Source: Nitrospirota bacterium (lineage in GTDB: Bacteria; Nitrospirota; UBA9217). From it: a DNA stretch of 64,000 nt. Position 1 is the stretch's first letter, and every line of letters begins with the position of its first letter. Below the pieces are notes generated by a model that was given only the letters and a program-made list of their open reading frames with translations, was not told the origin of the DNA and did not search any database. The stretch lies in contig CAVVOB010000038.1 in NCBI GenBank assembly GCA_963749655.1, positions 32,001 through 96,000 on the forward strand, read 5' to 3'. The translations under genes and the position numbers were made by a program. This document shows positions 11,514-27,036 of the stretch, piece after piece.

Positions 11514-14500
11514 ATGAAGAACAGCGAGACCCATAGGGACGATTTCCGGACAGTGAGTGCCTGGGACCGCACCGTGTACCTGCTTGCTTTTCTTGCGCTC
11601 CTTACAGGACTCTCTATTACGAGCTTGTACAGCTACCCTCTGTTTCACAGCCTTGCCGAATTATTCAGCATCGTTATAGCGTTCGGCATATTCGTCATCG
11701 CCTGGAACTCCCGGCCTTTTCTGAACAACAACTACCTGCTGTTCCTCGGCATAGCCTACCTCTTCGTCGGAGGCCTGGATCTCATTCATACCCTTGCTTA
11801 TAAAGGCATGGGCGTGTTCAAAGTCAACGACGCCGATCACCCGACCCAGTTATGGATCGCAGCCCGTTATCTGCAGAGCCTGTCGCTGCTGGCCGCCCCC
11901 TTTTTCATCGGACGAAGGCTCAATGCCGGCGCCGTGCTGGCCGGATATGCCGGCATCTTTGCTCTGCTGCTGTGGACCATCTTCGGCAGCGATAGTTTCC
12001 CCGTGTGCTACGTTGACGGCACGGGGTTGACGCCGTTCAAGAAGAACAGCGAGTACGTGATCAGTCTCGTGCTGCTGCTGTCCGGAGCAGCGCTGCTTCG
12101 GAGGAAAAGCGTGTTTGAGGGGAAGGTCCTCCGTCTTCTTCTCCTTTCCCTGGCGGCGACCATCGTTTCGGAGCTTGCCTTTACCTTTTATATCGGCGTC
12201 TATGATCTGTCCAACCTGGTAGGGCACCTGTTCAAGATCATAGCGTTCTCTTTTGTCTATCTGGCTATCATCAAAACGGGCATCAAGGACCCCTTTGACA
12301 TCATATTTAGAAGCCTGAAACAGCGCGAGGAGGAGCTGCAGAAAACAAAGACAGGGCTGGAGGTGCGCGTTGCAGAGCGCACCGAGGATCTGAACGCGTC
12401 GAAGCAAATGCTCGAACGGGAGATTGATGAACACAAGCGCACTGAAGAGATGCTGAAGGGACAGTACTCGACCCTGAGCAGCATTCTCGAGGGCGCGAAT
12501 GCACTGATCTTCTCGGTGGACCGGCAGTACCGGTACACCAGCTTCAACTCAGCCCACGCAGCGGTAATGAAGGCCATATACGGCACGGAGATCAGAAACG
12601 GCTGGAGCATACTGGATTTCATGACTGTTCCCGAAGACCGTGAAAAGGCGAAACAGAACCTCGACCGTGCTTTGGGGGGTGAGCGCCATATGGAATCGGC
12701 CTATTCCGGCGAGGACGCGAGGTCCCGGCGGTACTTCGAAGTGTCCCACAGCCCGGTCGTTGCCGACGACGGATCGGTGATCGGCGTGGCGGTGCTGTCG
12801 CAGGATATCACCGACCGCAGACAGGCGGAAGAGGCCCGGCGCAGATACAGCGAGGAGATCGAAGGCCTTTATAATTTCGCCCCCTGCGGCTATCATTCAC
12901 TGGACTCTGAAGGAGTCATTATCCGGATCAACGATACCGAACTCCAGTGGCTTGGTTATGCGCGGGACGAGATCGTGAAAAAATGAGGTTCTCCGATATC
13001 GTAACAGAGAAGAGTCTGCAGGTCTTTCAAGCGAACTTCCCTCTGTTCAAGAAACAGGGCTGGGCGAGAGACCTGGAATTGCGAAATGATACGCAAAGAC
13101 GGGACGCTCCTGCCGGTGCTCCTGAGCGCCACGGCGATCTACGACGAGGACGGCAATTTCGCGATGAGCAGGTCGACCGTCTACGACATCACCAGGCGCA
13201 AACAGGCCGAGGATGCTCTGCGAGAAAGCGAGCAAAAGTACCGCGATATATTCGATAGTGTTCTCGACGGACTGTACCTTCTCCGTGCAGGTCCGGGACA
13301 AACCGCGGTCTCTACGGTACATGGGCCGGGTTGCGCTTCAGTGACCGGCTATGCACCGGAGGACTATGCGGGCGACCCGGGTCTCGGTATCGAATGGTGT
13401 ACAACCGGACCGGCGGAGGTGATCGGGAAGACGTCAGGATCCTGGCAGGCGAAGCGGCATCGCCGCTGGAACACCGGATTATCCACCGGGACGGCTCCCT
13501 GCGCTGGGTGCGGAATACGTCCGTAGCCAGTGACCAGAAACGGCGGCAAATCGGCTACGATGGTCTGATCGCAAAGTATCGCCGGGCGCAAGCGGGCGGA
13601 GGAGCAACTGCGCCCCATCGAAGAGAGATACGGACTCTGGAATCCTTTGACGTCTTTTTATCACCTCACGGGACGGGAAAATCCTCGACATGAACAAAAA
13701 AGGCATTGCGCTATTCGGGTACGACACGAAAGAGGAAGTTTGTCGCCTTGATCTGGAACGGGACGTCTATGCTTATCCGCTGGACGGGAGCAGATCCTTG
13801 CACTCGTTGGGGCGCTGGGCACGGCCGAATATGAAATCATCGTCAAGAAAAAGAGCGGTGAAAGAATAACAGCTCATTGCGCATTGACAGCCGTACAAGG
13901 AGACGACGGTGAGATTACCAGTTACCGGGGAATCATTCAGCGCATCACGGAGCAAAAGCTGGCAGAGGAGGCCTTGCGCCGGCTGAACCGCGAACTGCGC
14001 GCCATCAGCAACTGCAACCAGACCTTGATGCGTGCGACGGACGAGCAGACGCTCCTGAACGACGTCTGCCGCATAATCTGCGATGAGGCCGGCTACCGCA
14101 TGGCGTGGGTCGGCTATGCCGGAGAACGACGAGCAAAGAAGCGTCCGTCCCGTGGCCTGGGCCGGGGTAGAGGATGGATATCTGGCCACCGCCGAGATCA
14201 CCTGGGCAGACTGCGAACGCGGGCGCGGGCCCACGGGAACGGCCATCAGAACCGGAGAGAGCGCCTGCATCACGGATTTTATGACCGATCCGCAGGCCGC
14301 CCCCTGGCGCGAGAATGCCCTGAAGCGCGGATACCGTTCCAGCATCTCCATGCCCCTCAAGGATGAAAGCGGACAAACCTTCGGCGCCCTCACAATCTAT
14401 TCCACTGATTCGAATACCTTCACGCCCGGCGAGCGACGGCTCCTGGAGGAACTGGCTGGCAATCTCGCCTTCGGCATCACGATCCTGCGCGCCCGGATCG

Positions 14501-24252: not shown

Positions 24253-27036
24253 ATGAACATACTTATTGTTGACGACAACCGAGACGACAGAACGGTGCTC
24301 AGGTACATGGTTTCAAAGAACGGCCACCAATCGATCGAGGCGGCGGACGGCCTGGACGGCCTGAAAAAAGCGCGCAGCAGCAGGCCGGACCTGATCATTT
24401 CCGACGCCCTCATGCCCGTGATGGACGGCTTCCAGTTCCTGAGGCAGGTGAAACAGGACCCGGACCTTCGCACGATCCCGTTCATTTTCTATTCCTCCTC
24501 GTACAAGGATTACCAGGACGTTCGGCTTGCCGTTTCACTCGGCGCGGACGCCTACATCATTAAGCCGGTGGAGCCCGTCGAGTTGTGGCGGAAGATCGAA
24601 GATCTCTTGAAGGCCGGCAAGACGGCGGCGAACCCTCCCGTCCCGCTGATCAGGGAAGATGCGGAATACCTGAAGCGATACAGCGAGGTCGTGGCGACGA
24701 AGCTCGAAGAGAAGGTGCGGGAACTGGAACTGACCCTGGAAGGACGCAAGCGGGCTGAGGAGGCGCTTCGGGAAAGCGAACGGAAATACCGGCGGATCGT
24801 TGATACGGCCAGCGAAGGCATCGTGATGCTCGGCCCGGACGCCATGACCACTTTTGTGAACGCGAGGATGGCCGACCTGCTTGGCTATCGGATCGAGGAC
24901 ATGATCGGTCAACCGTTGACCGCTTTCATGTTCGATGAGGATGCTTCCGATCACCTCCGAACAATGGAGGCCCACCGCCTGGGCAAGACGGACCAATATG
25001 AACGCCGGTTCCGCTGCAGGGACGGACGGGCAGTCTGGACCCTGGTGTCGGCCGTGCCGGTCTTCGACGGCGAAAACAAGTTCAGCGGCTCCTTCGGGAT
25101 GTTCACCGACATCAGCACGCGCAAGAAAGCCGAAGAGGACCTGGAGAAAAACGAAAGATTTCTCAATAACATCGTGGAGAACATCCCAAACACGATTTTC
25201 GTCAAGGACGCCGAAACGCTGAGGTTCGTACGATTCAACAAGGCCGGCGAGCAGCTTCTGGGATACTCGCGGGACGAACTGCTCGGGAAAAGCGATTACG
25301 ACTTGTTTCCAAAGGAGATAGCGGATTTTTTTACCGCAAAGGACCGTGAAGTGCTCGGGGGAAAACTACTCGTCGATATTCCGGAAGAGTCAGTCAGGAC
25401 AAAGGACAAGGCCGAGCGCATCCTCCATACAAAAAAGATCCCGATCCTGGATGAAACCGGAAAGCCGCAATACCTCGTCGGGATATCCGAGGACATCACG
25501 GAGCGCAGGCGGGCCGAGGAGTCGATTCGCAAACTCTCCCAGGCGGTCGAACAAAGCCCGGTATCCATCATCATTACCAACGCTTCGGGCACAATCGAGT
25601 TCGTTAACTCCAAATTCACGGAGGCAACCGGCTATTCCCGCGCCGAGGCCCTGGGCCGGAATCCCCGCATGCTGAAGTCCGGCGAAACGCCGGCAGAGGA
25701 GTACCGGCGTCTCTGGAAGACCATCAGCTCGGGCGGGGTGTGGAGCGGCGAGTTCCACAATCGGAAAAAGAACGGCGAGCTGTTCTGGGAGCAGGCAACG
25801 ATCGCCCCGATCAGAAATGCCGACAACGTCATCACCCATTATGTCGCGGTCAAGGAGGACATCACCGGGCGCAAAAAACTCGAAGAACAGCTCCGCCAGG
25901 CCCAGAAGATGGAGGCCATCGGGACCCTTGCCGGCGGAGTGGCCCACGATTTCAACAACATCCTCACCGCGATCATCGGATACGGCACTCTCGTAAAGAT
26001 GAAGATGAAGCACGATGACCCGCAGCATCACCTGCTCGACCAGCTCCTGCTGTCATCGGAGCGGGCCGCAAATCTGACGCGGGGGCTCCTCGCTTTCAGC
26101 AGAAAGCAGGTCCTCAATCCGAAACCGGTCGACCTCAACGACATCGTAAAGAGCGTGGAAAGACTCCTCCGCAGGCTTATCGGCGAGGACGTCGAACTTG
26201 CTATTACGCTTGCCGATACAAATCTCATTGTAATGGCCGATGCCGGCCAGATCGAGCAGGTCCTCATGAACCTTGCTACCAATGCCCGGGACGCCATGCC
26301 GGAGGGGGGGGCGCTCTCCCTTACGACCGAGGACATCGATCTAAAGGAAGGGTTCATCGGCACCCACGGATCAGGCCGACCCCGGAAATATGCCCGGATC
26401 ACCGTTATCGACTCGGGCACCGGCATGGATGAGCAGACACGGGAAAAGATCTTCGATCCCTTTTTCACGACAAAGGAAGCGGGGAAAGGCACCGGCCTCG
26501 GGCTCGCGATCGTGTACGGGATCGTGAAACAGCACGACGGGATCATCAACGTGGAGAGCGAGGCGGGGAAGGGGACTGCGTTCAAGGTCTATCTGCCGCT
26601 CATCGCCACGACAACGGAGCAGGCGCCTGCTGAAACACTACCCCCGCCGCGGGGCGGCACGGAGACGATCCTTCTCGCCGAGGACGATCAGGACGTGCGA
26701 AATCTGACGAAACACGTGCTGCAGGATTTCGGCTACCGCGTCATCGCCGCACAGGATGGCCAGGAGGCCATAGACAGGTACACGGCGCAGGCGGACGATA
26801 TCGATCTCCTGATCCTGGACGTCATCATGCCGAAGAAAAGCGGCAGAGAGGTATACGACGCCGTCAAAGCGGTGCGCAGGGATGCGAACGTCCTTTTCGT
26901 CAGCGGGTATACCGCCGATGTCCTGCACAAGAAAGGCATGTTCGAAGAAGGGATCCAGTTCATTGCGAAGCCGGTGAGCCCCTCGGTGCTGCTGGAAAAG
27001 ATCCGCGAGGTCCTGGATAAGCACCCCTCCGGCTGA
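24253..27036 (+). CDS. Hybrid histidine kinase REC-PAS3-HisKA-HATPase-REC
   Basis: N-terminal receiver; three [33 protein letters not shown]-terminal receiver. Confidence 0.93.

Follow-up and report, generated by a model that had tools for sequence, protein, structure and literature searches.

A conserved C-terminal tail of kinase-less sensors is linked to a socket motif in signalling enzymes encoded downstream

How can a sensor protein that carries no output domain of its own pass on what it senses? The question was raised by a locus of a Nitrospirota bacterium (UBA9217; assembly GCA_963749655.1, contig CAVVOB010000038.1), located within positions 32,001-96,000 of the forward strand; this stretch of 64,000 nt is referred to here as the window. 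Between positions 11514 and 27036, three sensors are encoded upstream of a histidine kinase, a single-domain receiver and a hybrid kinase, and all three end, after a signalling helix, in the same tail of 22 residues. The initial annotation had proposed that this tail is an output dedicated to protein interaction, by which receptors without catalytic domains would influence one common kinase in trans. Strong comparative evidence was obtained in favour of this proposal, with the reservations that the first sensor is broken in the assembly and that the linkage described below is not obligatory. The tail is also called the plug here, and a motif found in the enzymes encoded downstream of it is called the socket. 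Plug and socket were tightly linked on the same strand, across phyla and across catalytic outputs.

The three tails that the initial annotation had quoted were present letter for letter, each after the signalling helix, and they conform to the consensus N+xFV(G/N)RELRMxELKxRIxE(L/M)E. The distance from the tail to the stop codon was 16, 14 and 11 residues in sensors 1, 2 and 3, respectively, and Pfam detected no HisKA, no HATPase_c and no other catalytic domain in any of them. When all six frames of the 4.27 Mb genome were searched with a loose form of the tail pattern, it was found at exactly three places, the three sensors, and the likeness of the tails is therefore not due to chance. The three coding stretches differ at many third codon positions and specify the same residues, which indicates that the likeness has been maintained by selection and does not reflect recent copying.

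When the C-terminal 60 residues of sensor 3 were used as the query of a word-indexed search, 112 relatives of 403-1285 residues were retrieved. Nearly all of these (111 of 112) lacked HisKA and HATPase_c, and in 109 the tail pattern was located 8-31 residues from the C-terminus. Two others (P0041 and P0080) had a slightly altered tail at their end, and P0112, the sole relative with kinase domains, had no tail. An exhaustive profile search of 1.84 billion representatives yielded 12072 matches at E<=1e-3, the weaker of which will include plain signalling helices, and 1487 cluster representatives at E<=1e-10. In 149 of the best 150 cluster representatives the match was at the C-terminal end, as read from the table of matches, and P0121 matched with the signalling-helix half only. 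At the DNA level, all 179 tail-bearing open reading frames (ORFs; 153 unique) of 80 fetched loci and the window stopped 1-37 residues past the motif, and all 43 instances of variant tails lay 9-36 residues from the stop. A search limited to much longer proteins, aimed at fused forms, gave two matches, both without kinase domains, although this is weak evidence. The tail was thus C-terminal in the proteins examined, and no homologue was seen to continue from it into HisKA or HATPase domains, the arrangement which the initial annotation had named as contrary to its proposal.

The input domains of the tail proteins were diverse, and included MASE3, PAS, GAF, HAMP, dCache, SBP_bac_3, PF12974, PocR, CHASE, 5TM-LYT and REC; PF12974 was fused to PAS and the tail in P0048 and P0102. 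In 20 of the 153 unique tail proteins the first domain is a receiver, and 14 of these 20 are encoded directly after a hybrid kinase, so that the tail also serves as a response-regulator output. Cultured organisms that carry the plug and socket pair are Geobacter sp. OR-1, Geomonas sp. Red32 and Geomesophilobacter sediminis Red875. The weaker tail matches in an unbiased sample of 401 genomes of the phylum were variants of this tail, with forms such as ...VGRELRMIELKKEINEL...PRY..DFE, ...FQKLTVGRELKMIELKKEIE, ...VNLMAGRELRMAELK and ...FYxMAVGRELRMxELK. One tail variant has a second conserved piece, G.P.RY..(D/E)FE, between the coil and the stop codon (loci L148, L149, L151-L154, L316, L321 and L327). 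A decayed tail, ...FVGRELRTVELKERIIDRE..., with stops shortly upstream, was also noted at L155:4758-4841 (G023:C28) and is likely to be a pseudogene fragment.

A logo of 361 tails showed a sharply conserved block from N-3 to E18 and noise beyond it. The heptad a and d positions are F0, R3, M7, L10, I14 and L17, with the conserved Arg inside the core. Positions directed outward were conserved to the same degree as the core (V1 0.94, G2 0.93, L5 0.94, E9 and K11 approximately 1.0), and this invariance suggests a binding surface rather than a plain dimer zipper. In the signalling helix that precedes the tail, R-18 and T-17 (0.96 conserved) and the heptad hydrophobic residues correspond to the S-helix signature. 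Pfam at E<=10 returned no HisKA for the tails, only chance coiled-coil families below their cutoffs, and NCBIfam gave only sub-threshold matches, with a weak alignment to the linkers of a NosR-family REC/HD-GYP model and of NahK. A search of PDB sequences with the tail profile matched the signalling-helix part only, and weakly; the ESM Atlas returned nothing usable, the best score of 0.89 being among unnamed clusters. Among open-access articles, to which the search was limited, no relevant paper was found with the tail and socket motif strings. The tail thus marks a large family of putative kinase-less receptors that is without a Pfam, NCBIfam or PDB match. The possibility that it is a degenerate H-box with Arg in place of His was considered and dropped, except as a resemblance. 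In an ungapped alignment the offset from the signalling helix is one residue off, the position aligned to the kinase His is Arg or Gly in the tails, and a SpoIIE-type linker is about as similar.

Alignment of the kinases encoded downstream of tail genes revealed an extremely conserved stretch, S(Q/R)xALMNIVEDLNxKTxELExAN, between the signalling helix and the H-box. In the window kinase this socket reads SQMALTNIVEDLNDKTAELEQAN. Its Leu follows the Arg of the ERT signature by 18 residues, and the tail Phe is equally far from its own ERT. Six-frame pattern searches of the window genome found three plugs and one true socket, all in one operon. The window thus contains tails within approximately 40 residues of the C-terminus of proteins without a catalytic domain, and a same-strand socket downstream that precedes a catalytic domain. 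Bacteroidota, Nitrospirota and others also have kinases of another DHp class (ELEAFSYSVSHDLRAPL) that are encoded after tail genes and carry the same socket. Among the 36 unique socket kinases of the fetched loci, 33 had a tail gene upstream on the same strand, and 19 were encoded immediately after the tail gene.

As the fetched loci had been selected by the tail, counter-tests selected by the socket, and controls, were also run. Selection by the socket alone (ALxN[IL]V[ED]DLN, one genome for each of 185,579 species) gave 178 stretches, of which 77 distinct loci were kept. A tail was present on the same strand, 1.1-8 kb upstream, in 45 of the 62 loci with at least 4 kb of upstream sequence (the raw count of 47/64 took in two short loci bearing tails), and no tail was found on the opposite strand in the socket-selected loci. 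By DHp class, upstream tails were found in 40/54 socket loci of the HELRTP class and in 6/6 of the HDLRAP class. In 79 loci of generic SHELRTPLN kinases (1.27 Mb), retrieved by a search with the whole-kinase alignment and used as a control, neither a tail nor a socket was detected, and a generalised form of the socket was absent from all 99 kinases. In the tail-selected loci, the generalised socket was present in 40/83 unique kinases within 6 kb downstream of a tail, a count that takes in hybrid kinases without a socket, and in 5/33 other kinases. The corresponding values for the signalling-helix control loci (L017-L080, mostly with ordinary kinases) were 1/2 and 0/84. Overall, 92 matches to the socket pattern were counted in the 3.75 Mb of tail loci, compared with a single match in the 4.20 Mb of control loci.

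The 401-genome sample contained tails in 93 genomes and the kinase subtype in 23, with both in 14, where approximately 5 would be expected by chance. Strong tails (>=52 bits) were present in 15 genomes, and the kinase subtype (E<=1e-40) in 9 of these; in all 9, as read from the tables, the kinase was encoded a few kb downstream of the tail on the same contig and strand. The tail therefore co-occurs with a particular, socket-bearing kinase subtype, as the initial annotation had suggested might be checked, although the linkage is not obligatory.

The pairing extended to other outputs. Variant tails preceded kinases with variant sockets (SRVAALNLMED, NRAMLNLLEDF and SKEALVSLLEDVN). Three sensor-less kinases of 326-400 residues had three to six tandem 21-residue repeats (Q+AMLNILDDFxxEK...) before HisKA/HATPase, and their genes overlap or abut the stop codon of a large tail sensor. 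Proteins of this type numbered 1746 at E<=1e-3 among 8000 candidates scored. Of the 120 listed, three had PAS; in the other 117, Pfam showed no domains besides HisKA or HisKA_2/HWE and those of the HATPase type, apart from PF26724.1 or PF12352 in a few. Socket-repeat kinases were found in six of the 401 genomes, and an independent tail search placed a tail at most 250 bases upstream, on the same strand, in all six. Tails of the FYxMAVGRELRM variant preceded HD-GYP (PF13487) proteins instead of kinases, and in the five examples examined the sequence DSR(D/N)AF(F/L)NML(K/E)D was located directly before the HD-GYP domain. The weak match of the tail region to the REC-HD-GYP linker in NCBIfam is consistent with this result. 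The socket is the one feature that all these downstream partners share. Of the 120 socket-repeat kinases listed, 8 (P0245, P0249, P0255-P0258, P0276 and P0285) carry the precomputed accession PF26724.1, which may already describe the repeat.

Tail and socket also share their register. The Phe0 of the tail was located 18 residues after the ERT Arg in 71 of 82 tails, the other 11 having no ERT by pattern. In 79 socket kinases, the Leu of ALMN followed the ERT Arg by 18 residues (56 kinases) or by 11 (16 kinases). This spacing of 18 or 11 residues places tail and socket in the same heptad phase, and the conserved tail block of 22 residues covers the same extent as the socket block and the repeat of 21 residues. 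If the two were paired in parallel and in register, the core Arg of the tail would face an Ile of the socket, and the core Lys of the socket would face a Leu of the tail; in homodimers, like would face like. This pairing was read from consensus sequences and not from a computed energy.

These observations make it reasonably probable that the plug docks on the socket of the kinase encoded downstream of it. Under such docking, each sensor would sense with its own input domains, probably aided by its own PhnD-like binding protein, and sensing would bring the long coiled coil at its C-terminus into a different state. The plug would then pack, helix on helix, against the socket, between the signalling helix and the phospho-accepting helix, and this packing would shift the helix leading into the catalytic domain of the effector. 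The contact itself, its geometry (an in-register heterodimer or a four-helix bundle) and the sign of its effect are the inferred part of the proposal. In the window organism, the genome's only socket kinase would be the point of convergence for sensors 2 and 3 (and for sensor 1, should it be intact there), and this kinase would then act on the conserved receiver and the hybrid kinase. A wider proposal, that plug helices at the ends of hundreds of different kinase-less receptors, and of receiver proteins, bind single or tandem 21-22-residue sockets placed before varied outputs and so constitute a general, portable docking code of bacteria and some archaea, is put forward tentatively, at slightly less than even chances. 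The outputs would be HD-GYP phosphodiesterases and histidine kinases of two or three classes. Sensing and catalysis would reside in separate, exchangeable proteins, several sensors could share one enzyme, and socket arrays might act as multi-input strips.

Several observations count against docking on the downstream socket. No tail was present within 10 kb upstream in 17 of the 62 socket loci, 9 of the 23 genomes with the kinase subtype had no tail match, and in 6 of the 15 genomes with strong tails the kinase subtype was not detected at E<=1e-40. For the 148 unique tails with at least 5 kb of downstream sequence, a socket was found within 8 kb in only 74. The kinases that follow variant tails in L317, L321 and L333 had no socket by pattern, and only two of the three window sensors are intact in the assembly. 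Kinase, receiver and REC-containing protein travel together, so that synteny alone cannot fully separate the socket from them. In addition, related genomes are non-independent, some loci from different searches overlap, and the tail and socket patterns were derived from the first examples in these same data.

The absence of a nearby socket for half of the tails would also be in keeping with a different role, in which the tail does no more than homodimerise and, as a cap, stabilise the signalling helix of stand-alone sensors. The sensors would then act otherwise, for example through ligand buffering or PAS-PAS contacts, and the linkage would reflect common descent and co-transfer. The clean a/d heptad in the C-terminal half of the tail (M7, L10, I14 and L17) and the patchy, island-like distribution of the tail within the order (15/64 genomes) are consistent with such a cap. 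However, hardly any variation is seen at positions b, c and f, and one of the core d positions is taken by a conserved Arg. The pairing recurs, moreover, with unrelated catalytic domains and in distant phyla including archaea, kinases with socket repeats only directly follow the tail gene in all six cases, and receiver proteins have the tail as their sole output. A role limited to capping is accordingly considered unlikely.

Another explanation is that plug and socket each bind a shared third component, for instance the single-domain receiver or the REC domain of the next protein, which would couple the sensors to the kinase. The commonest pattern downstream of the tail genes was that of the window, i.e. 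a kinase, a receiver of approximately 125 residues and a REC-containing hybrid kinase. The receivers were unusually conserved, with 58-76% identity to that of the window in approximately 20 loci of several phyla and 48-54% in two archaeal loci, compared with at most 43% for ordinary receivers. The catalytic half of the kinase showed 45-60% identity to the window kinase across those loci. The receiver followed the socket kinase in 60 of the 77 socket loci, and in L001, L002, L107 and L135 a REC-SpoIIE protein directly follows the tail genes. Nevertheless, HDLRAP-class socket kinases all had upstream tails (6/6), and ten socket loci (L305-L307 and L309-L315), among which most of the HDLRAP-class kinases listed fall, had no receiver of at least 50% identity. 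The HD-GYP partners and the socket-repeat kinases also keep their pairing in other gene contexts. Strict co-occurrence of the tail with the receiver was rejected, as high-identity receivers were present in genomes of the same order without a tail match (G013, G016, G001, G052 and G009). Binding through a third component therefore appears quite improbable.

A further possibility, which is a sub-case of docking rather than a true alternative to it, is that the tail proteins are dominant-negative partners that form mixed dimers via the signalling helix and so switch the kinase off, instead of supplying it with positive sensory input. As tail and socket are equidistant from ERT, an in-register heterodimer would be geometrically natural. 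The DHp domain of HisKA kinases forms a four-helix bundle in the dimer, and half of this bundle would be missing from such a heterodimer. There is also a precedent in RetS, which is reported to disrupt the dimer interface of GacS (PMC8498467). Against this, the socket-repeat kinases would have inhibitors yet no activating input. We give this form of docking only a small share of the likelihood assigned to docking as a whole. That the tails are functionless remnants of truncated or mis-assembled kinase genes, as the many frame breaks in sensor 1 and its binding protein might suggest, is refuted by their conservation: 1487 cluster representatives, an identical end point in hundreds of genes of many phyla, three window copies that diverge synonymously with their residues conserved, and the intact sensors 2 and 3.

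Some likenesses to known systems can be drawn. In modular polyketide synthases, docking domains, i.e. short helical modules at the C-terminus and their partners near the N-terminus of the next protein, link the parts of a pathway; this is an analogy of design only, from another field and with no sequence relation. Short LOV and other stand-alone PAS proteins consist of a PAS sensor that ends in a coiled-coil helix, with no enzymatic output; to our knowledge they have neither a conserved RELRM tail nor a known partner motif.

Closer to the tail proteins is the S-helix, a coiled coil of about 40 residues with an ERT-type signature, which in the account of Anantharaman, Balaji and Aravind (2006; PMC1592074) is almost always located between two domains. 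The stretch before the tail, LNxELEQRVxERTxEL, conforms to the S-helix in having the ERT signature and in following PAS or GAF domains, but in the tail proteins the helix is followed only by the 22-residue tail and a stop codon, and a second flanking domain is absent. In Pseudomonas aeruginosa, RetS is reported to block GacS by disruption of the GacS dimer interface (PMC8498467). In both cases one sensor protein would control another kinase through direct helix contacts and not through phosphotransfer, the helix contact being a prediction for the tail proteins. RetS is, however, a full hybrid kinase that uses its DHp domain, whereas the tail proteins have neither the second DHp helix nor a catalytic domain, and carry instead a dedicated tail that recurs on hundreds of unrelated sensors. 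DivL of Caulobacter is reported (PMC4211667) to be a non-phosphorylatable, kinase-like adaptor that works with DivK and CckA and feeds a true kinase. By our own comparison, the tail loosely resembles an H-box with Arg for His, a resemblance only, since the ungapped distance from the signalling helix to this Arg is one residue off that to the His of kinases. DivL also keeps its DHp and CA domains, but the tail proteins have neither and end 8-37 residues past the motif. Trans-acting accessory sensors are thus already known in the form of whole kinase-like proteins (RetS-GacS and DivL-DivK-CckA), but not in that of a short portable tail.

The usual picture of two-component signalling is that of a single sensor fused to a single kinase. 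If plugs do bind sockets, this would explain the role of thousands of output-less 'PAS domain S-box proteins', the source of input of the abundant small sensor-less kinases, and the merging of several signals on one kinase. Such a pair of helices, being short and transplantable, could also be used to connect engineered sensors with outputs of choice.

The features of the window locus are listed in Table 1, together with the sites of an accessory gene trio discussed below.

Table 1. Features of the tail-sensor locus, in window coordinates, and sites of the B12 trio in other loci.
Feature	Position	Strand	Basis
Sensor 1: MASE3, PAS repeats, two GAF, signalling helix, tail	11514..15252	+	ORFs 11514-12986 and 14083-15252, Pfam; at least 5 frame segments
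Tail of sensor 1: NRLFVGRELRMVELKDRIREME	15157..15222	+	Translation, pattern search
PhnD-like periplasmic binding protein 1, interrupted	15249..16129	+	tblastn
Sensor 2, intact, 550 residues: two transmembrane segments, HAMP, two PAS, signalling helix, tail	16126..17778	+	ORF and Pfam
Tail of sensor 2: NKIFVNRELRMVELKDRIRELE	17689..17754	+	Translation, pattern search
PhnD-like periplasmic binding protein 2 (PF12974)	17775..18647	+	Pfam
Sensor 3, intact, 734 residues: transmembrane segment, PAS, GAF-like, PAS, signalling helix, tail	18635..20839	+	ORF and Pfam
Tail of sensor 3: NKVFVGRELRMAELKKRIKELE	20759..20824	+	Translation, pattern search
Histidine kinase, 999 residues: N-terminal region of ~440 residues, two PAS, signalling helix, socket, HisKA, HATPase_c	20859..23858	+	Pfam, alignment
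Kinase socket motif: SQMALTNIVEDLNDKTAELEQAN	23040..23108 (residues 728-750)	+	Alignment, pattern search
Single-domain receiver, 125 residues	23824..24201	+	Pfam; 58-76% identity to receivers after the same kinase type
Hybrid kinase: REC, three PAS, HisKA, HATPase_c, REC	24253..27036	+	Pfam
B12 trio sites	L087:7655-9354, L088:6338-8643, L113:11297-13561, L121:6010-8293		

Every gene of the locus is on the + strand and the packing is tight: the successive junctions are overlaps of 4, 4, 4 and 13 bases, a 19-base gap, a 35-base overlap and a 51-base gap. The gene order given in the initial annotation, from sensor 1 through the two binding proteins interleaved with sensors 2 and 3 to the kinase, receiver and hybrid kinase, was borne out by the ORFs and Pfam. 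Sensors 2 and 3 were confirmed to be uninterrupted, the next gene overlapping the stop codon of sensor 2 by 4 bases and starting 19 bases after that of sensor 3; the GAF match of sensor 3 is weak in Pfam. Binding protein 2 is a member of PF12974 (E 4.6e-41, 141.2 bits against a cutoff of 27). The kinase is of the HisKA type by Pfam (HisKA 69.7 bits, HATPase_c 90.1 bits), with the H-box SMSHELRTPLNSIIGF. Its first ~440 residues (20859-22180), in which two transmembrane segments surround a region of ~280 residues, had no Pfam family and no relative among the fetched loci, and this N-terminal sensor was therefore rejected as the conserved partner of the tail. A scan of the locus for promoters and terminators gave matches at chance level only. 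At G000:C16:45007-46113, the same genome encodes a further pair of kinase and receiver, which is more distant (51% and 52% identity) and has neither a socket nor tails nearby.

Of the initial observation of three sensors, the tails, the gene order and sensors 2 and 3 stood, but the genes of sensor 1 and its binding protein are interrupted by stops and frameshifts. No single open frame spans sensor 1, which contains in-frame stops at 12984 and 13002 and changes frame several times at approximately 12950-14100. Its N-terminal ORF encodes MASE3 (303 bits) and PAS, and its C-terminal ORF two GAF domains (Pfam). Full-length relatives align across 11595-15222 only through stops and repeated frame switches, as shown by tblastn and a map of stops by frame. 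In the gene of binding protein 1, stops at 15492 and 15588 flank a stretch in a shifted frame, and the translation of this gene, read through the breaks, is 27% identical to binding protein 2 over 15273-16064 (tblastn). The stops and paired frame changes are confined to approximately 12.9-16.1 kb, and the flanking genes are intact. Among sequencing runs, only one contained 6% of the sequence words, and at 85% likeness it yielded short metagenome pieces from relatives. One 161-base contig of this kind had four extra single bases, at 13385, 13402, 13414 and 13435, and the breaks therefore look more like unpolished indel errors than decay. This hints, from the contig of one relative only, at assembly errors in a repeated region.

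In other loci, tail genes form arrays of up to six, interleaved with accessory input genes that encode PhnD-like and Peripla_BP_4 binding proteins and also a methyl-accepting chemotaxis protein (MCP) and CheW. The REC-SpoIIE (PP2C) regulators directly after tail genes are located at L001:5772-7070, L002:11737-13005, L107:4890-6170 and L135:10135-11460, and their REC domains are 51-54% identical to the first REC of the window hybrid kinase. Upstream of tail sensors, a TonB-dependent receptor and a DUF4154 protein that resembles YfiR/HmsC were found repeatedly (L007:5717-7981 and L016:8365-8892). Finally, a trio consisting of a B12-binding protein (PF02310), a URO-D-like methyltransferase (PF01208) and DUF1638 (PF07796) recurs beside tail sensors, and looks like a corrinoid-based accessory input.

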